NCBI GenBank assembly: GCA_964544335.1
Contig: CAZJAJ010000002.1
Location: 78,109-142,108, forward strand
Source: an uncultured Methanosarcinales archaeon
Lineage (GTDB): Archaea > Nanobdellota > Nanobdellia > Woesearchaeales > JABIAG01
DNA: 64,000 nt
Reading direction: 5' to 3'
This document shows positions 10,224 to 54,742 of the stretch, one piece after another. A program made the position numbers and the translations under genes. The stretch's first letter is position 1. Each line of letters begins with the position of its first letter. The notes beneath the pieces were generated by a model. The model had not been told where the DNA came from. It searched no databases and saw nothing but the letters and a program-made list of their open reading frames with translations.

Positions 10224-10705
10224 ATTTCCTGTTCTCTACTAAAAGGAATCTCAAGTGTTCCCGTTGGCAATTCAACAAATGCAACACCCTCAATTACAAG
10301 AATATTTTTCTCATCGTTTACAAACGTATTGAGTAAATAACTAACGCCCCCTCCAGCAGCACCTTCCCAACTCACTTGAGCATCTGATTCAACCACTTGT
10401 GTTTGCATACCTTTCAATTGAATCTCAGGAAGACCACTCTCTCCAACACTTTTATTATTCACAAAGAACTCAAGTTCAACTCGATCAATCGTAAGTGGAA
10501 CAAGTTCATTAGGATTAAACACAGAAACCGAATACGTCACATTAATGCCTTCAGAAGAAACACTATCGATCATTACACTCCCAAAAGAAACTTCTGGTGG
10601 CTCAACCAGCGATGGAGCAACAACCCACAATCGTGGAACCACAAATACGAGTGCAACGAGTACAACAAGAATTCCAACAAGCACAAGTGTACTACGCATC
10701 GTCAT
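10220..10705 (-). CDS. LEA_2 / WHy (NDR1/HIN1-like) domain protein with N-terminal membrane anchor
   Basis: N-terminal TM helix, then a beta-rich ~120-aa domain (VTYSVSVFNPNELVPLTIDRVELEFFVNNKSVG) typical of LEA14/WHy. Confidence 0.45.
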   Translation of the reverse strand: MTMRSTLVLVGILVVLVALVFVVPRLWVVAPSLVEPPEVSFGSVMIDSVSSEGINVTYSVSVFNPNELVPLTIDRVELEFFVNNKSVGESGLPEIQLKGMQTQVVESDAQVSWEGAAGGGVSYLLNTFVNDEKNILVIEGVAFVELPTGTLEIPFSREQEI

Positions 10706-11660
10706 ACGGTATATTAATACCGTCTCTATTTAAACGTTCTCTATGAAGGTGTAGTTCAAGAGCTTCTCTTTCCTTTCTTTCTTCTTCTATATTATCACGA
10801 AGATAAAAAGCAGGATCTTCAATGTATGTTTTCATTTTACCAAGAGCTTTTTTTTGAATCTGCCGGACTCGCTCTCGTGTTCTACCAATAGTTCTTGAAA
10901 CTTCCTCAAGTGTCTTTGGAATAGTACCATCAAGACCATAGCGCATGCGTAACACTTCTTGTTCTCGTTCATCAAGTAAGAAAAAACATTCATTCATCAC
11001 ATCAATAATATTCTCATCAGAAAGCTGTTCAGAAGGGTTGTCCACATCTGCTGCAACAATCTCTTCTAAACTAAATTCGCTGCCCTGTTCAAGTGGGTCA
11101 TGAAGAGACCGAACAGGTTCAGTAATGGCAGTATCAAGTCGTCTAATGACACCTGGACTAACATCTAAATTCTCATGTTCACCAAGATAGCTAGCCAACA
11201 TTTCATACGAAGGAACCTCTCCATGCTCACGAGTGAGTATTCCTTTAGCACGTTTGATTTTTCGAATCTTATTTGCAGAAGCAACAGGAATTCGAATAAT
11301 TCTACTCTTCTCAAAAATTGCACGTCGCATACCCTGTTTAATCCACCAAGAACCATAAGAAGAAAACTTAGCACCCTTATCAGGATCATATTTCTCAGCA
11401 GCTTTCATAAGACCAATATTTCCTTCAGAAATTAGATCAGGCATAGGAAGACCCATGCCCTTAAAATCATGAGCAATTTTAACCACGAGTCGAAGGTTTC
11501 TCTTAATCAGTTCATCTCTTGCATCAAGATCACCATCACGTGATCTATATCCTAGGATCGTCTCTTCCTCTCTGCTAAGAAGTGGATATTGACCAATATC
11601 TTGCATATATGATCTCATAGCATCATCAGTTGCTTTACCCTTACCCATGAAGAGAAGCAA
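10692..11660 (-). CDS. RNA polymerase sigma-70 family sigma factor (regions 1.2, 2, 3, 4)
   Basis: Region 2 has DLISEGNIGLMKAAEKYDPDKGAKFSSYGSWWIKQGMRRAI (like DLIQEGNIGLMKAVEKFD...YATWWIRQAI). Region 4.2 has TLEEVSRTIGRTRERVRQIQKKALGKMK. The N-terminal RSYMQDIGQYPLLSREEE matches region 1.2. Confidence 0.85.
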   Translation of the reverse strand: MLLFMGKGKATDDAMRSYMQDIGQYPLLSREEETILGYRSRDGDLDARDELIKRNLRLVVKIAHDFKGMGLPMPDLISEGNIGLMKAAEKYDPDKGAKFSSYGSWWIKQGMRRAIFEKSRIIRIPVASANKIRKIKRAKGILTREHGEVPSYEMLASYLGEHENLDVSPGVIRRLDTAITEPVRSLHDPLEQGSEFSLEEIVAADVDNPSEQLSDENIIDVMNECFFLLDEREQEVLRMRYGLDGTIPKTLEEVSRTIGRTRERVRQIQKKALGKMKTYIEDPAFYLRDNIEEERKEREALELHLHRERLNRDGINIPYDDA

Positions 11661-20554: not shown

Positions 20555-22219
20555 CTACATCTCTTCAGGATGTTCCATGAGCAGCAGTTCCATCGTAATA
20601 CCAAGAATCTGCTTGGTTGCAGTAACCAGTAATACTCGAGATTCAGTTAAATCCTTATCATCACCAATAACTGGGCATGACCTATAGAATACATTAAACG
20701 CACGCGCAACATCAATAGCAAACCGTGCAACAACAGACGGTCTATTACGTTCAATGGCTTCTGCAATAACATCATCAAATGAACCAAGCAACTTCAGTAA
20801 ACCATACTCTGCATCCTCAGTAAGCAGTTCATGTAAAATCTTCTTCTTTGTTTTCTGGGCATCATACTTTCGCAAAATACTACAGCATCGAGCATACGCA
20901 TACTGCACATACGGTCCCGTATCACCTTCAAAATCAAGTACCTGATCCCATGTAAATGTAATGTCATTTGTTCGATCACTAAAGAGATCATTAAACACTA
21001 CAGCACCAATACCTACTTGCCGAGCAACCTCTTTCTTTTTCTTTAGCTTAGGATTCTTATCACTAATGATTTTGTGTACTTTTTCTATTGCCTTATCAAG
21101 AACATCTTCAAAGATAATGATATTCCCTTTTCGAGTAGACATGGACTTATCGGGAAATCGCATCCGTCCAAAAATAATGTGCTCTCCAACCCCATCATAT
21201 TTCTTATCAATTTTCTTAAGTGTTGCAAATACTTGTTCAAAATGTAATTTCTGAGCAACATCAACCACATACAAAATTTTCTTTGGCTTATATAATTTCA
21301 TCCGAGAAATAAAAGCAGCAACATCTCGTGCAGCATACGTACTTGCACCATCGCTTTTTAGAATAATGCATGGTGGCTCTTCCTCACCAAGTGGTGCAAC
21401 AAGAGCGCCATCATCACGTTTAACAATGCGTTTTTTCTTAAGCAGAGCAACTGTCTTCTCTACATCTTTTACTGCAACAGCCTCTCCATCAAAAGAATCA
21501 AACCGAACACCCATCATAGTATAGATACGTTCATAATCAGAAAGTGAAACTTCTCTAAATAATTTCCACAAGGCAACTGATTGCTTATTGCCATCTTCCA
21601 GATCCTTAAACGCATCTCGTGCAAGCTCATGTAGAACAGGATCCTTTTCAGCTTCCTCATGAAATTTCACATAAATTCTATTAAGCTCTTTAACACCTTC
21701 TTTTTTGATTTTTGCAGGACTACTCCACTTCTCAGCAGCAAGAATCAGCTGACCAAAATTTGTTCCCCAATCACCAAGGTAATTAACGCCGGTCGTAGTA
21801 TATCCCGCATAGGTGTAAATCCTATACAAGCTTCCACCAATAACAGTGCTTCGCATATTATGAATGCCCATATGCTTTGCCACATTTGGCTGTGAATAAT
21901 CAATGACGATCTTTCCTTTTCGTTTGAGCCGTCCAAAGTGTTCATCATTGCTAATGGCAGTAAGCACTTGATGAGCAATGACTGCTCTATCCAAAAAGAA
22001 GTTCACATATGGCCCTTTTGCATCAACACTCACCCCTTTAATATCAAGTTCACTAATAAGATCTACAGCAACCTCATGTGGTTTCTTCTGCCGTTTTGCA
22101 GCAAGCTTAAAACACGCAAAGGCATAATCTCCCCACTCTGGGTTTGGAGGTACCTCAAGAACAACTTCGTCTTTGGTAATCTCTCTAAGAGCCTTTACAA
22201 TAGATTTTGAAAAATCCAT
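20555..22219 (-). CDS. argS: arginyl-tRNA synthetase
   Basis: 554 aa. Class-I HIGH-like HMGIHNMRSTVIGGSL, an Add-1-like N-terminus and a DALR-type anticodon-binding C-terminus. Confidence 0.85.
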   Translation of the reverse strand: MDFSKSIVKALREITKDEVVLEVPPNPEWGDYAFACFKLAAKRQKKPHEVAVDLISELDIKGVSVDAKGPYVNFFLDRAVIAHQVLTAISNDEHFGRLKRKGKIVIDYSQPNVAKHMGIHNMRSTVIGGSLYRIYTYAGYTTTGVNYLGDWGTNFGQLILAAEKWSSPAKIKKEGVKELNRIYVKFHEEAEKDPVLHELARDAFKDLEDGNKQSVALWKLFREVSLSDYERIYTMMGVRFDSFDGEAVAVKDVEKTVALLKKKRIVKRDDGALVAPLGEEEPPCIILKSDGASTYAARDVAAFISRMKLYKPKKILYVVDVAQKLHFEQVFATLKKIDKKYDGVGEHIIFGRMRFPDKSMSTRKGNIIIFEDVLDKAIEKVHKIISDKNPKLKKKKEVARQVGIGAVVFNDLFSDRTNDITFTWDQVLDFEGDTGPYVQYAYARCCSILRKYDAQKTKKKILHELLTEDAEYGLLKLLGSFDDVIAEAIERNRPSVVARFAIDVARAFNVFYRSCPVIGDDKDLTESRVLLVTATKQILGITMELLLMEHPEEM

Positions 22220-25382: not shown

Positions 25383-25457
25383 ATGGGCTCTACGGGATTC
25401 GAACCCGCGGCCTAAAGGTTAAGAGCCTTTCGCTCTGACCAGACTGAGCTAAGAGCC
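25383..25457 (-). tRNA. tRNA-Lys (anticodon CTT)
   Basis: The reverse complement folds as GGGCTCT / GCTC-AGTCTGGTC-AGAGC / AAAGG-CTCTTAA-CCTTT / AGGCC / GCGGG-TTCGAAT-CCCGT / AGAGCCC-A. Canonical 75-nt cloverleaf. Confidence 0.85.
25445..25457. repeat. direct repeat copy 1 (tRNA-Lys 5' end), duplicated at 25525-25537
   Basis: gagctaagagccc at 25445-25457 versus gtgctaagagccc at 25525-25537. The two copies flank a ~65-nt two-hairpin element. Confidence 0.6.
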
Positions 25458-25524
25458 CATCACTCATGGGCTTGAGCAAAGCGAAACCCATTTCGATATG
25501 AAGTGACGAAACAGTTCGACTGTG
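25458..25524. mobile_element. ~65-nt two-hairpin insertion-like element (copy at tRNA-Lys), homologous to the element after srp54
   Basis: Hairpin ATGGGC...AGCAAAGCG...CCCAT, then TTTCG, then hairpin ACAGTTCGACTGT. It shares AGCAAAGCG, TTTCG and ACAGT(T)CGA(A)ACTGT with 44317-44385. It is flanked by direct repeats of the tRNA 5' end. Confidence 0.4.
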
Positions 25525-25600
25525 CTAAGAGCCCGCTCAATGTAAACAGGGTGGGAAGATGTGTTTTAAAAATGTATTTTTTTAGAATATTCATCTAACT

Positions 25601-26347
25601 TTACTCTTCCAAAATAGCAGGAACTTCAATATAACAATCACCATGTCTATCTACAATGCCTGAAGCATACTCATCTGATCGTTTTCTAATAACTCGTCTA
25701 TCCTCGCCGAGCATACGTGGAACAACAAACCCAAACATTACATAATTAAGAAGCGTAGTGCTCATATCAAGGCCCTCTCTTGCATGCATAAGTGTATCAC
25801 GAGCCGATGAATATCTCACCCCACACCGATATAATAAATCTCTACTAAACCCCTTCACTCCTTGTTCTCTATAAGAATACAACTCATTAATATGAGACAA
25901 CCTATGAAACAAATTACCGCTCCCTGAAGGTTCTGTACTCATCATAATCAAAAAAGGATCAGCTAAACAATATGGTTCACTTTGCATAACACTCTCAAAC
26001 CGCTCTCGTTCATCTGGAAAATGCATTACAGCAAGAGTATTCATAAAATCAAATAACACCACACTCGTATAGAAATCCTTTCGAAGGTGTTCTTTATCTT
26101 TATTTTGACAAGAAAGTTCATACGTAAACGAACGTATCTTCTCACTAATTTTCTGTTCTGCAAGAGCAGGTAAAGAAAAATCAATTTCCTCATGCAGTGC
26201 ATGCACATATCGTGCAAGTGACCAGTACGGGATGCAGGTACACTCTTGCCTAAGTCCCAAATGAAGATCCAGTGATAGGTTTTGCCTTCCCATGCAGACT
26301 GTAAGCACATCTAGAATTAAAATGTTATGAATAAAACAGACAGACAC
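25601..26347 (-). CDS. hypothetical protein
   Basis: 248-aa ORF with no recognisable motif. The start is possibly further downstream (MGRQNLS). Confidence 0.35.
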   Translation of the reverse strand: MSVCFIHNILILDVLTVCMGRQNLSLDLHLGLRQECTCIPYWSLARYVHALHEEIDFSLPALAEQKISEKIRSFTYELSCQNKDKEHLRKDFYTSVVLFDFMNTLAVMHFPDERERFESVMQSEPYCLADPFLIMMSTEPSGSGNLFHRLSHINELYSYREQGVKGFSRDLLYRCGVRYSSARDTLMHAREGLDMSTTLLNYVMFGFVVPRMLGEDRRVIRKRSDEYASGIVDRHGDCYIEVPAILEE

Positions 26348-33300: not shown

Positions 33301-33337
33301 AAAGTCCAGGTTGATGGCCTGGTAAGGTTAACCAATC
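33301..33337 (-). repeat. partial duplicate of the 5S-like internal hairpin, followed on the minus strand by a T-tract
   Basis: ccaggttgatggcctggtaaggttaaccaatc closely matches 33461-33496 of the full copy. On the minus strand, ACTTTTCTTTTTTT follows it. Confidence 0.5.
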
Positions 33338-33372: not shown

Positions 33373-33547
33373 GGGTAGAGCCGTGGTGGCAGAATCTGGT
33401 ATGCGAGAAAATGCTTTACATTTTCGGCACGCAGAAAATTTTCAATTTTCCCGCGTTGCGCCAGGTTGATGCCCTGGTGAGGTTAACCAATCTCTTGTGG
33501 GTTCGAATTCAACCCGTAATTGAACGGAAATCCCGCCCACGGCGCCC
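33373..33547 (-). rRNA. 5S rRNA-like gene, copy A, with a 55-nt internal insertion
   Basis: Minus-sense GGGCGCCGTGG...CCACGGCTCTACCC gives a terminal helix that covaries with copy B (GT/AC versus AA/TT). Internal AUUCGAACCC...GUUAACC resembles the archaeal 5S loop-C region (CAUUUCGAACCCGGAAGUUAAGCC). ...UUCUGCCA precedes the 3' helix strand, as in 5S. The size without the insertion is ~120 nt. A conserved AATATT plus A/T-rich promoter-like region lies upstream. Confidence 0.45.
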
Positions 33548-33564
33548 AATATTTTTTAGAAAAA

Positions 33565-42976: not shown

Positions 42977-44320
42977 ATGGTCTTAGATTCACTAGGAGAG
43001 AAGTTAAAAAACACCCTTGGAAAGATTTCCAAAGCCCTTTTTGTAGATGAAAAACTCCTCGATGAAATTCTACGAGACATCCAGCGAGCACTATTGCAAG
43101 CAGATGTCAACGTACAACTCGTATTCAAACTCACAAAATCCATCAAAGAACGAGCACAAAAAGAAAACATTCCAGGACTAGATAAAAAAGAACATCTCAT
43201 CAAAATAGTCTATGAAGAACTCGTACAATTTCTTGGTGGAGAGAAAAAAGAACCTGAAATTAACAAAAAGCCAACCAAACTCATGCTCGTTGGTCTCTTT
43301 GGTGCAGGAAAAACTACTACTTCTGGTAAAATTGCAAAATACTACACCAAACGTGGAAAAAAAGTTGCACTCGTAGGACTTGATGTATGGCGACCTGCTG
43401 CAATGAAGCAGTTAGAACAAGTAGGTAAAACTATTGGTGTTGATACCTATGTCAATCAAGAAGAAAAAGATCCCATTCAACTCTGGAATAATGTCAAAGA
43501 CCAACTAGGCAACTATGATTTAGTGATCATTGACACCGCAGGACGAGACGCACTCTCAGAAGAACTCATCACAGAAATAGAAGAGGTTACAAAAACCATA
43601 AGTCCTGATGAAAAAATTCTCGTACTGCAAGCAGACATTGGTCAAGCAGCACAAAAGCAAGCAGAACAATTCCACAAATCCTGTGAAGTAACTGGTGTTA
43701 TTATCTCAAAAATGGATGGTTCAGCAAAAGGTGGTGGAGCACTCACTGCATGCGCAGTAACTGGAGCGCCAATCATGTTTATTGGGGTAGGTGAACGTCC
43801 AGATGACTTTGAATCATTTAATCCAAAAGGATTCGTATCACGAATGCTTGGCATGGGAGACCTTGATGCACTGCTAGAAAAAGCAGAACTTGCAATGAAA
43901 GGCATGGACAATGAAGACATGCAAAAGAAACTCATGAAAGGTGACTTTGACCTCAATGATTTGTATGAACAAATGTCTGCCATGAAAAAAATGGGATCAC
44001 TCTCAAAAATAATGGACCTCCTTCCAGGAATGGGCGGAATGAAAATCCCAAAAGATGCACTCAAAGTACAAGATGAAAAACTCACCAAATGGAAATTCAT
44101 CATAGATTCCTGCACACCATTTGAGCGTGCAAATCCAGATCAAATGAGTGGATCACGAGTTGAGCGAATTGCAAAAGGCTCAGGAACCACAGTACAACAA
44201 GTACGAGAACTCCTCAAACAATACAAAATGTCTAAAAAACTCATGAAAACCATGGGCGGCTCTGAAAAGAAAATGCAGAAAATGATGGCAAAAATGCAAG
44301 GTGGCGGACTGCCTAGGTAA
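42977..44320 (+). CDS. srp54: signal recognition particle protein SRP54
   Basis: N domain, G domain (GLFGAGKTTT, DTAGR, ISKMDG) and Met-rich M domain. 447 aa. Confidence 0.95.
   Translation: MVLDSLGEKLKNTLGKISKALFVDEKLLDEILRDIQRALLQADVNVQLVFKLTKSIKERAQKENIPGLDKKEHLIKIVYEELVQFLGGEKKEPEINKKPTKLMLVGLFGAGKTTTSGKIAKYYTKRGKKVALVGLDVWRPAAMKQLEQVGKTIGVDTYVNQEEKDPIQLWNNVKDQLGNYDLVIIDTAGRDALSEELITEIEEVTKTISPDEKILVLQADIGQAAQKQAEQFHKSCEVTGVIISKMDGSAKGGGALTACAVTGAPIMFIGVGERPDDFESFNPKGFVSRMLGMGDLDALLEKAELAMKGMDNEDMQKKLMKGDFDLNDLYEQMSAMKKMGSLSKIMDLLPGMGGMKIPKDALKVQDEKLTKWKFIIDSCTPFERANPDQMSGSRVERIAKGSGTTVQQVRELLKQYKMSKKLMKTMGGSEKKMQKMMAKMQGGGLPR
44300..44316. repeat. direct repeat copy 1 (srp54 3' end), duplicated at 44386-44402
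   Basis: ggtggcggactgcctag is present twice. The second copy would still encode MHGGGLPR-stop in frame. Confidence 0.7.
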
Positions 44321-44385
44321 TGTTCATCAGACTAAGCAAAGCGCATGTCTGATTTCGTAGCCTACAGTCGAAACTGTAGATGCAT
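44317..44385. mobile_element. ~65-nt two-hairpin insertion-like element (copy at srp54), homologous to the element at tRNA-Lys
   Basis: Hairpin ATCAGAC...AGCAAAGCG...GTCTGAT, then TTTCG, then hairpin CTACAGTCGAAACTGTAG. It is flanked by 17-nt direct repeats that duplicate the srp54 3' end. Confidence 0.4.
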
Positions 44386-44434
44386 GGTGGCGGACTGCCT
44401 AGATGATTATTCTAAAAAATAACTCTCAAAATAC

Positions 44435-54442: not shown

Positions 54443-54564
54443 GGGCGCCAAGGGCGGGACTTTCGCGTCTTGGGGCTCGACATTCGAACCCGCATGAGAC
54501 TGCGTTAGCCTCACCAGGGCATCAACCTGGCGCATAACCAGATTCTGCCACCTTGGCTCTACCC
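54443..54564 (+). rRNA. 5S rRNA-like gene, copy B (122 nt)
   Basis: Terminal helix GGGCGCCAAGG / CCTTGGC-TCTA-CCC. Internal GACAUUCGAACCCGCAUGAGACUGCGUUAGCC resembles the archaeal 5S loop-C/helix-III region. Hairpin CCAGG-GCAUCAA-CCUGG, then ...UUCUGCCA before the 3' helix strand (E. coli AACUGCCAGGCAU). Conserved AATATT plus an A/T-rich region immediately upstream. Confidence 0.5.
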
Positions 54565-54596: not shown

Positions 54597-54645
54597 ATAC
54601 TGCGTTAGTCTCTCCAGGCCATCAACCTGGTTTTTCTTTTCATCT
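54597..54645 (+). repeat. partial duplicate of the 5S-like internal segment ending in a T-tract (terminator-like)
   Basis: ctgcgttagtctctccaggccatcaacctgg matches 54501-54531, and is followed by TTTTTCTTTTC. Confidence 0.5.
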
Positions 54646-54742
54646 ATTCTTCATAAATGATTCTCAGAATATTTCGGAAATTTTACGAAGAAATAGATAC
54701 AATTTTATACCTAATGCCCCACAAATTACTTGAGGTGATATC

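Follow-up and report, generated by a model that had tools for sequence, protein, structure and literature searches.

Repetitive extragenic palindromic (REP) sequences are defined as short imperfect palindromes, one end of which bears a conserved tag (GTAG or CGTC), and GTAG-tagged REP hairpins abut or overlap the ends of open reading frames (ORFs) (PMC3733652). In a KEGG Orthology (KO) screen of 256 Nanobdellota proteomes, the REP-associated Y1 transposase (K07491) was the sole transposase KO with strict hits (bioRxiv 10.64898/2026.05.13.725050). Here, we analyzed a 64-kb stretch of contig CAZJAJ010000002.1 (referred to below as the window), in which a short two-hairpin insert, named E, stands between the srp54 gene and a second copy of that gene's end, and in which a similar insert is found at a tRNA-Lys gene. 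The host is a Woesearchaeota-type DPANN archaeon; the window encodes SRP54, eRF1, eIF-1A, CDC48, ThrRS, SerRS and GatB, and the top homologues of its SRP54 are labelled Woesearchaeota or Nanoarchaeota. We consider E, with a probability of roughly 0.5, to represent a small, lineage-restricted Woesearchaeota family of non-autonomous, hairpin-defined mobile insertions (57-72 bp) that are REP-like and duplicate the end of their target gene.

For comparison, we used about 150 kb of relatives' sequence, comprising the loci L001, L220, L221/L223 and L226/L227, whose SRP54 proteins are 85% (L001), 68% (L220), 66% (L221) and 65% (L226/L227) identical to that of the window. The copies are named E_A (srp54, window), E_B (tRNA-Lys, window), E_C (eRF1, L221/L223) and E_D (srp54, L226/L227). 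At each site, R1 refers to the gene-proximal repeat copy and R2 to the displaced distal copy, that is, the relic of the gene end.

At srp54, the gene is intact and its end is present twice, the two copies being separated by E_A (Table 1) and identical at 25 of 28 positions. In hairpin 1 of E_A, ATCAGAC (44326-44332) is paired with GTCTGAT (44347-44353), and the loop carries the motif AGCAAAGCG (44335-44343). Hairpin 2 pairs CTACAG (44362-44367) with CTGTAG (44374-44379) around the loop TCGAAA, and the linker between the two hairpins contains ATTTCG. The insert is more stable than shuffled sequence, both as RNA (z -2.6) and as DNA (z -3.5, 0 of 200 shuffles). An earlier reading of this DNA from its letters only (the sequence-only reading) had described these two hairpins and a second gene-end copy that can still be read as MHGGGLPR-stop, and all of these are indeed present. 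It had also proposed that a 17-nt target duplication re-creates the end of srp54; the duplication stands, but it measures 28 nt, the 17-nt repeat being that of tRNA-Lys. Past R2_A, the flank seems alignable with the intergenic region of a relative, as judged by eye and not from an alignment.

The second insert of the window, E_B, follows the same plan at the tRNA-Lys gene. As a scale for its repeat, a 17-mer with up to three mismatches is expected 0.03 times in the window. Hairpin 1 of E_B is formed by 25466-25470 and 25487-25491, with AGCAAAGCG in its loop at 25475-25483, and ATTTCG is found at 25490-25495. For hairpin 2, the best in-register partner is GAAGTG (25500-25505) set against CAGTTC (25512-25517), with the loop ACGAAA. 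The ACAGT/ACTGT hairpin that had been proposed for this insert takes bases from the repeat and has to give way to the better in-register GAAGTG/CAGTTC arrangement. About 30 nt beyond R2_B, which is upstream in the orientation of tRNA-Lys, lies a TATA-like TTTTTAAAA; if this box is the promoter, the tRNA is probably transcribed with an unusually long leader of roughly 85 nt. Synteny of gatB between the window and the relatives is broken. The minus-strand ORF adjoining the element (25601-26347, 248 aa) is an orphan: a search of 5.8 billion protein clusters returned only the ORF itself, and neither Pfam nor PHROGs gave a match.

A separate observation concerns a 20-mer, TAGATGAWTATTCTAAAAAA, that occurs once beside each of the two window loci, oppositely oriented with respect to E. 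With up to three mismatches allowed, it has two matches in 64 kb, compared with 0.10 expected, and the two sites remain similar over 37 nt (81% identity, E = 5e-4). At srp54, the 20-mer appears, by eye against a relative, to be the ancestral junction of stop codon and flank.

The two window inserts present their parts in the same order and at near-equal offsets, namely TCAT, a stem, AGCAAAGCG, the return stem, ATTTCG, 11 nt and CGAAAC, in agreement with the first-loop motif and TTTCG that the sequence-only reading had reported as shared. AGCAAAGCG occurs exactly twice in the window, once per insert. Logan assemblies of a different sequencing run reproduce both loci base for base, which excludes an assembly artefact. 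The best local match between E_A and E_B is a 9-mer only (p ~0.02). When the two sequences were aligned with MAFFT, 92% of the cells of the E_A-derived structure could pair, with five pairs altered on both sides and none altered on one side. In controls in which the partner was slid, double-changed pairs were absent at 1-2 columns and at -3, and one was seen at +3. Positions 6-22 of E_A also resemble the 5' region of tRNA-Lys (14/17, p = 0.003 uncorrected).

A covariance model built from the two window copies (model 1) scored its own members at 79 bits (E_A) and 75 bits (E_B) and found no additional copy within the window. Among the relatives, it matched L221 at 2844-2914 with 18.6 bits (E 0.064 over 152 kb, 0.0067 over the locus). 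This third copy, E_C, is a 72-nt insert that begins on the base directly after the eRF1 stop codon; behind it, the eRF1 3' end is repeated over 36 nt (34/36), the stop codon being part of this repeat. Its hairpin 1, GGGCTTGA...GAAACCCA, is common to E_B, and its hairpin 2, CTAC...ACGAAAAC...GTAG, resembles that of E_A. Model 2, built from E_A, E_B and E_C, matched hairpin 2 of a fourth copy, E_D, downstream of srp54 in L226/L227. E_D measures 57 nt and forms two hairpins (RNA z -3.2); the repeat on its two sides, 72 nt long and 85% identical, comprises the srp54 3' end and 34 nt of flank. Hairpin 2 of E_D, CTACAGACGAAACTGTAG, is identical to that of E_A at 17 of 18 positions, even though SRP54 of the two hosts shares only 65% identity, and the hairpin-1 halves of E_A and E_D are unrelated. 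Short-range direct repeats of this sort are rare in the compared sequences and lie outside the models, and the gene-end repeats beside E_C and E_D thus independently confirm the model matches. The covariance search for more copies with flanking duplications, which had been suggested together with the original observation, therefore yielded two, one at eRF1 and one at srp54. For spotting further copies, we propose CTACAGNCGAAACTGTAG as a plain search string.

In a three-sequence alignment, 8 of 13 stem pairs carried compensatory changes, a result attained by 0 of 500 shuffles; it should be noted that this alignment was fitted to the covariance model and is hence biased toward the model structure. 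The earlier claim that the stems covary is thus borne out by the five double-changed pairs of the two-copy alignment and by the compensatory pairs of the three-copy alignment. The claim that the two window inserts are homologous also held up: their pairwise similarity alone is weak, but their relatedness is supported by the further copies reached through the covariance model.

The srp54 3' ends of L001, L220 and L221 contain neither insert nor repeat. In these relatives (the closest one, at 85%, and two more distant ones), the stop codon runs straight into the flank. Gene order across srp54 is the same in three relatives. Comparison with related genomes thus reveals empty sites and not an ancestral insert, as is expected if the element was inserted and duplicated its target, which is how the sequence-only reading had understood it. 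The eRF1 3' ends are likewise empty in the window, L001, L220 and L226, according to gene tables and model searches. SRP54 is 85% identical between the window and L001, 81% between L221 and L226, and about 66% between these two groups, such that each srp54 carrier has a sister without the insert. Moreover, E_A and E_D differ at both junctions: the left junction is at stop +1 in the former and stop +34 in the latter, and the right junctions are about 10 nt apart in srp54 coordinates. As the sisters lack the insert and the junctions differ, two independent gains at srp54 are more parsimonious than one gain followed by three losses.

All four copies stand at the ends of essential genes and share the order gene end, E, copy of the gene end. 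The inserts measure 58 (E_A), 59 (E_B), 72 (E_C) and 57 nt (E_D), i.e., 57-59 nt in three of the four, and the respective repeats measure 28, 17, 36 and 72 nt. Between 0 and 7 variable nucleotides precede hairpin 1, the stem of which is variable and begins with AT. In hairpin 2, the loop follows the pattern (T/A)CGAAA, and the stem is CTAC...GTAG in three of the four copies; this hairpin abuts the relic copy or lies 4 nt away from it, which defines the right end of the insert. In every copy, the intact gene lies on the side of hairpin 1, which makes E sense with respect to srp54 and eRF1 and antisense with respect to tRNA-Lys; the two window copies lie on the same DNA strand. The repeat copies are 85-94% identical, indicating that the insertion events are fairly recent, and the differences between relic and resident copies are mostly G-to-A in the relics. 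No junction microhomology was seen by eye at the four copies, and the flank past the relic contains nothing similar to the left part of E.

Table 1. Features of the two window loci, in window coordinates
Feature	Position	Strand	Description
srp54	42977-44320	+	ORF, 447 aa, intact, ends MQGGGLPR-TAA; SRP54 Pfam domains; homologues at 100% and 85%
R1_A	44294-44321		Final 27 nt of srp54 and the next base; gene-proximal member of the 28-nt direct repeat
E_A	44322-44379	+	58-nt insert with two perfect hairpins between the repeat copies
R2_A	44380-44407		Displaced srp54 3' end, MHGGGLPR-TGA; runs on into the ancestral downstream flank
20-mer TAGATGATTATTCTAAAAAA	44400-44419	+	Overlaps the end of R2_A
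tRNA-Lys(CTT)	25383-25458	-	ARAGORN call at 25383-25459; Rfam tRNA at 25384-25458, 73.8 bits; intact
R1_B	25442-25458		tRNA-Lys positions 1-17 in + strand reading; its limit coincides exactly with tRNA position +1
E_B	25459-25517	+	59-nt insert at the 5' end of tRNA-Lys; motifs co-linear with E_A
R2_B	25518-25534		Displaced copy of tRNA-Lys positions 1-17, 16/17
Second 20-mer occurrence TAGATGAATATTCTAAAAAA	25578-25597	-	Between the stop codon of ORF 25601-26347 and R2_B, 43 nt beyond R2_B

The closest known relatives of E are REP/REPIN elements and elements of the IS200/IS605 type. Like E, the REPs and REPINs mobilised by RAYT (the REP-associated Y1 transposase) and the palindrome-associated transposable elements (PATEs) of IS200/IS605 are tiny, non-coding and hairpin-defined and lack terminal inverted repeats. 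In REPs, too, stems vary while structure is kept, and the elements are located just outside ORF ends or touch them. The hairpin-2 foot of E also bears GTAG, with CTACAG-NCGAAA-CTGTAG in E_A and E_D and CTAC...GTAG in E_C, the corresponding pairing in E_B being GAAGTG...CAGTTC. However, the GTAG tag of a REP is unpaired, whereas that of E is within the stem. REPs are present in tens to hundreds of copies per genome and have a RAYT to mobilise them, while no RAYT gene adjoins any copy of E or is found in the window or in the compared sequence of the relatives. To our knowledge, REPs have been described almost only in bacteria.

MITEs (miniature inverted-repeat transposable elements) resemble E in being short, non-autonomous insertions flanked by direct repeats of the target, the length of which is variable and can be long; this holds especially for those of the IS1634/IS1549 group (IS4 family), whose transposases make long, variable duplications. 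In E, however, terminal inverted repeats are lacking, as none of the four inserts has mutually complementary ends, no related insertion sequence was seen in the window or at the compared loci, polarity relative to the gene is fixed, and the repeat length of 17-72 nt is unlike the fixed-length duplication of a classical transposase. Dispersed copies, as expected of a MITE, are seen in so far as there are four copies in three genomes with empty sites, but these are about 55% identical and no others were found in the model searches. Archaeal MITEs measure about 80 bp and up, and E is shorter.

Gene-regenerating integrative elements (those using tRNA-targeting integrases, ICESt1/CIME at the fda 3' end, and casposons at tRNA or EF-2 3' ends) likewise target the ends of conserved genes, with an imperfect direct repeat that reaches the gene boundary and leaves the gene intact. 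The same holds for E, where the identity block of the repeat reaches the gene end and regenerates the gene. These elements are, however, kilobases long and encode or depend on an integrase or Cas1, whereas only 57-72 non-coding nucleotides separate the copies of the repeat in E; no integrase-encoding element or remnant of one lies between them, and the neighbouring genes are negative in Pfam and PHROGs. Casposons further differ in having terminal inverted repeats and a fixed duplication of 14-15 bp, and neither these nor Cas1 accompany E. Archaeal introns with a bulge-helix-bulge (BHB) motif, such as the 'transposed' tRNA introns, are also small hairpin inserts at tRNA and other conserved genes of archaea with non-canonical introns, and the window itself has two tRNAs with such introns. 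In contrast to BHB introns, E forms no BHB motif, lies beyond the mature gene and has direct repeats on both sides. The family is new and outside every described class, an assessment that rests on four copies.

Several other identities were tried and rejected. Splicing of the insert together with one repeat copy was dismissed, as no BHB was found in folds of both strands with flanks and as the tRNA-Lys and srp54 frames are contiguous. For C/D-box, H/ACA, k-turn and hammerhead motifs, UGAUGA and GAAA-like strings occur only in E_A and in the wrong order, with no Rfam match; in Rfam, only two tRNAs scored above the gathering threshold, and nothing relevant was found at either locus up to E = 10. 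An integron attC site ('59-base element') does not fit, as the ends of E are unpaired and the RYYYAAC/GTTRRRY boxes are absent. Neither do the repeats form the variable and template copies of a diversity-generating retroelement, as there are 12 differences of mixed types, the in-gene copy has A in three of them, no reverse transcriptase was found, and the targets are SRP54, eRF1 and a tRNA. Ectopic spacer integration by a CRISPR system was rejected because the duplication is not ruler-defined and because the inserts are interrelated. At tRNA-Lys, the 76-nt spacing of the repeat equals the length of the tRNA, but the remaining in-register identity to a degenerate tandem tRNA-Lys pseudogene is 24%, the same as random. 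The idea that hairpin 1 of E_B is a snap-back of the tRNA 5' end is weakened by the presence of the same GGGCTT...AACCC stem at eRF1 in another genome. An integrated island at tRNA-Lys is not indicated either, as no further repeat copy, compositional shift, or viral or integrase genes were found, and an inversion between the two window loci conflicts with the unchanged gene order at srp54 in three relatives. Finally, the peptides of micro-ORFs starting at the hairpin-1 ATG are not conserved, and a repeat running past the gene boundary into E was discounted for want of similarity.

With regard to how E might spread, it is too short to encode its own enzyme and would thus be non-autonomous. A trans-acting enzyme would probably recognise the hairpins on single-stranded or extruded DNA, in a manner akin to that of Y1/HUH transposases on REP and IS200/IS605 ends. 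Insertion would be accompanied by duplication of 17-72 bp of the target, with the gene rebuilt on the hairpin-1 side and the old end left on the hairpin-2 side as a decaying relic. As the genomes are gene-dense, the copies that persist may be those in which the duplicated stretch reaches the gene end. Such survival bias can explain the location at gene ends, although not the exact boundary or the polarity.

This reading of E as a REP-like mobile family has some weaknesses that need to be considered. Insertion without target duplication is the habit of REPs and IS200/IS605 PATEs, while all four copies of E are flanked by repeats, and no gene for a transposase, integrase, Cas1, Y1 or reverse transcriptase was found in the window or among the neighbours of any copy. 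In three of the four copies, the end of the repeat coincides exactly with the gene boundary (stop +1 in E_A and E_C, tRNA +1 in E_B, with E_D reaching 34 nt past the stop), and all four have the intact gene on the side of hairpin 1; neither the exact boundary nor the fixed polarity is predicted by a model of symmetric staggered cuts. The similarity between E_A and E_B, when taken alone, is marginal, since its semi-global score is matched by 65 of 5000 dinucleotide shuffles (1.3%) and by 203 of 25434 random window 59-mers (0.8%). Folding clearly surpasses that of shuffled sequences only in E_A (RNA, DNA) and E_D (RNA, both strands), and E_B is no more stable than shuffles (RNA z -0.4; DNA z -1.0). 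As the inserts are about 55% identical to one another and the repeats 85-94%, the copies do not derive from one recent master. Finally, when GTDB genomes, JGI metagenomes and IMG/VR were scanned for the motifs, the only matches were chance ones within coding sequences, and the known copies remain four in three genomes, or about one per 30 kb of carrier sequence.

The boundary rule and the fixed polarity fit an attachment-site (att)-type or one-ended mechanism better than they fit symmetric staggered cuts, and the main rival is accordingly that these are footprints of site-specific or homology-anchored integration, in which E arrived already joined to a copy of the gene end, the repeats forming an attL/attR-type pair and E being the remnant or miniature satellite of an integrative element; a variant invokes homology-facilitated illegitimate recombination with DNA of a close relative. 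A repeat at the exact gene boundary with the gene rebuilt on the same side is the pattern of elements that integrate at tRNAs and gene 3' ends, a repeat of variable length is normal for att identity blocks, and the gene adjoining the tRNA-Lys copy is an orphan. The differences between repeat copies keep frame and stop (AGG/AGA, TAA/TGA, GCG/GCT), yet this synonymous bias is not significant, as at least 3 of 5 silent changes arise by chance at about 0.1 (a rough hand estimate), and the predominance of G-to-A in the relics is what local decay in an AT-rich genome would produce. We consider such an origin unlikely, given that no integrase was found in the window or at any compared locus, that an insert of 57-72 bp falls far short of the size needed for a double-stranded integrative element or for circularising as one, and that equal size and layout at four sites would require the same internal deletion four times. 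In addition, the tRNA is struck at its 5' end, which integrases seldom use, and in L226 the repeat extends beyond the stop codon. The same rule and polarity might instead reflect an undescribed, polar and one-ended integration recognised by structure, with the hairpin-1 end placed at the gene boundary, the hairpin-2 end 17-72 nt inside and the gene rebuilt, perhaps by a Y1/HUH or other single-stranded-DNA enzyme at the replication fork. E would then belong to a new class of selfish elements homing to gene termini and would be neither a REP, nor a MITE, nor an att scar, a suggestion that we regard as doubtful.

The remaining explanations do without a mobile family. If E were a selected structured RNA, acting as a 3'-UTR (untranslated region) stabiliser or terminator after srp54 and eRF1 and as a leader before tRNA-Lys, with the repeats incidental, then its conserved loops on covarying stems would be accounted for, as would the placement directly after stop codons that is seen in three cases; ATTTCG and CGAAAC could also pair with each other, and better so (with G-U) on the minus strand, as judged by eye. 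Such a role is nonetheless improbable, as E is antisense to one of its three kinds of gene, is missing at the orthologous positions in close relatives, matches no Rfam family even at E = 10, does not clearly exceed shuffles in stability in three of its four copies when folded as DNA and in two when folded as RNA, and carries neither an oligo-T terminator nor a promoter of its own, while a role as RNA in cis leaves the gene-end duplications unexplained. A single ancient insertion at srp54, inherited vertically and lost repeatedly through recombination between the flanking repeats, with hairpin 2 under strong selection, would account for the same gene end bearing E with a near-identical hairpin 2 in two distant lineages, and flanking direct repeats do ease precise loss. 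This history is quite improbable, since it demands at least three losses (L001, L220, L221) in place of two gains, both junctions differ, the hairpin-1 halves are unrelated, and the repeats are 85-89% identical while the insert-free sisters have only 81-85% identity in the SRP54 protein; the eRF1 and tRNA-Lys copies would still need movement. The inserts could also be immobile by-products of local replication or repair (flap ligation, snap-back synthesis, template switching) with palindromic filler, the similarity among copies being partly coincidental. The variable duplication length and palindromic inserts would suit such an origin, as would the likeness of E_A 6-22 to the tRNA-Lys 5' region, the presence of a 20-mer of the srp54 locus in the tRNA-Lys flank, and the existence of hairpin-free gene-fragment copies (L223 ThrRS, described below). 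We hold this to be highly improbable, because hairpin 2 is identical at 17 of 18 positions in genomes with 65% SRP54 identity, hairpin 1 is common to copies at different genes of different genomes, insert length is constant (57-59 nt) in three of four copies, and the junctions show neither microhomology (by eye) nor a left part of E that resembles the flank beyond the relic.

Further observations in the window and in the relatives concern other features. Two tRNA genes at 33377-33548 (+) and 54447-54557 (-), which form inverted repeats 21 kb apart, were missed by ARAGORN and Rfam. Both are class II (long variable arm) with G73, and their anticodon loop, TTGATGC, carries the Ile anticodon GAU; for a class II tRNA, the combination of such an anticodon with a Ser-type discriminator base is very unusual. 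The first has a 54-nt insert between the D-arm and the anticodon stem, and both have a T-loop insert of about 20 nt, which in the second contains a BHB-like TTCG/CGAA helix. When spliced by hand, both are called by ARAGORN as a 91-nt tRNA-Ile(gat). About 35 nt upstream of the 5' end of each gene there is a 32-nt copy of its own anticodon arm and half of the variable arm (33306-33337 and 54599-54630), with the loop TTGATGG in both. A weak model match at 54644-54698 (+) (8.8-10.8 bits, E 2.7-4.5), probably no member of the E family, lies 13 nt from the upstream copy of the second tRNA and within a stretch, TTCG..AAAAT..TTCCG..AAAT, that is conserved upstream of both. In Paludibacteraceae metagenome-assembled genomes (L142, L144, L148 and L154), a tandem array with units like TTTCGTGAGCRAAGCGAACCA was seen, which appears unrelated to the archaeal element. 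Beside tRNA-Leu, the window also contains a 322-aa ORF (10692-11660, -) with bacterial Sigma70 regions 1.2, 2 and 4 (E 4e-17, 6e-14). The contig is otherwise archaeal, and this ORF may represent a gene that a DPANN archaeon acquired from a bacterium. In L223, a 25-nt segment internal to ThrRS is copied (24/25; 20808-20832 and 20914-20938) 30 nt past the ThrRS stop with no hairpin insert, and gene-fragment copies near gene ends may thus be a wider feature of these genomes.

DPANN genomes are tiny and gene-dense, and their mobile DNA is very poorly known. Standard finders of MITEs and insertion sequences need terminal inverted repeats and short fixed duplications and would overlook inserts such as E, which, with its long variable duplication and its fixed gene polarity, fits no described insertion mechanism. 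For the carrier genomes themselves, relic gene ends can mislead gene callers, and the direct repeats make the insert sites hotspots for precise deletion. If E is mobile, a 57-72 bp element that settles on the ends of SRP54, eRF1 and tRNA genes while leaving these genes intact would be among the smallest mobile units known, and its enzyme, if found, would add a new structure-guided DNA insertion activity.

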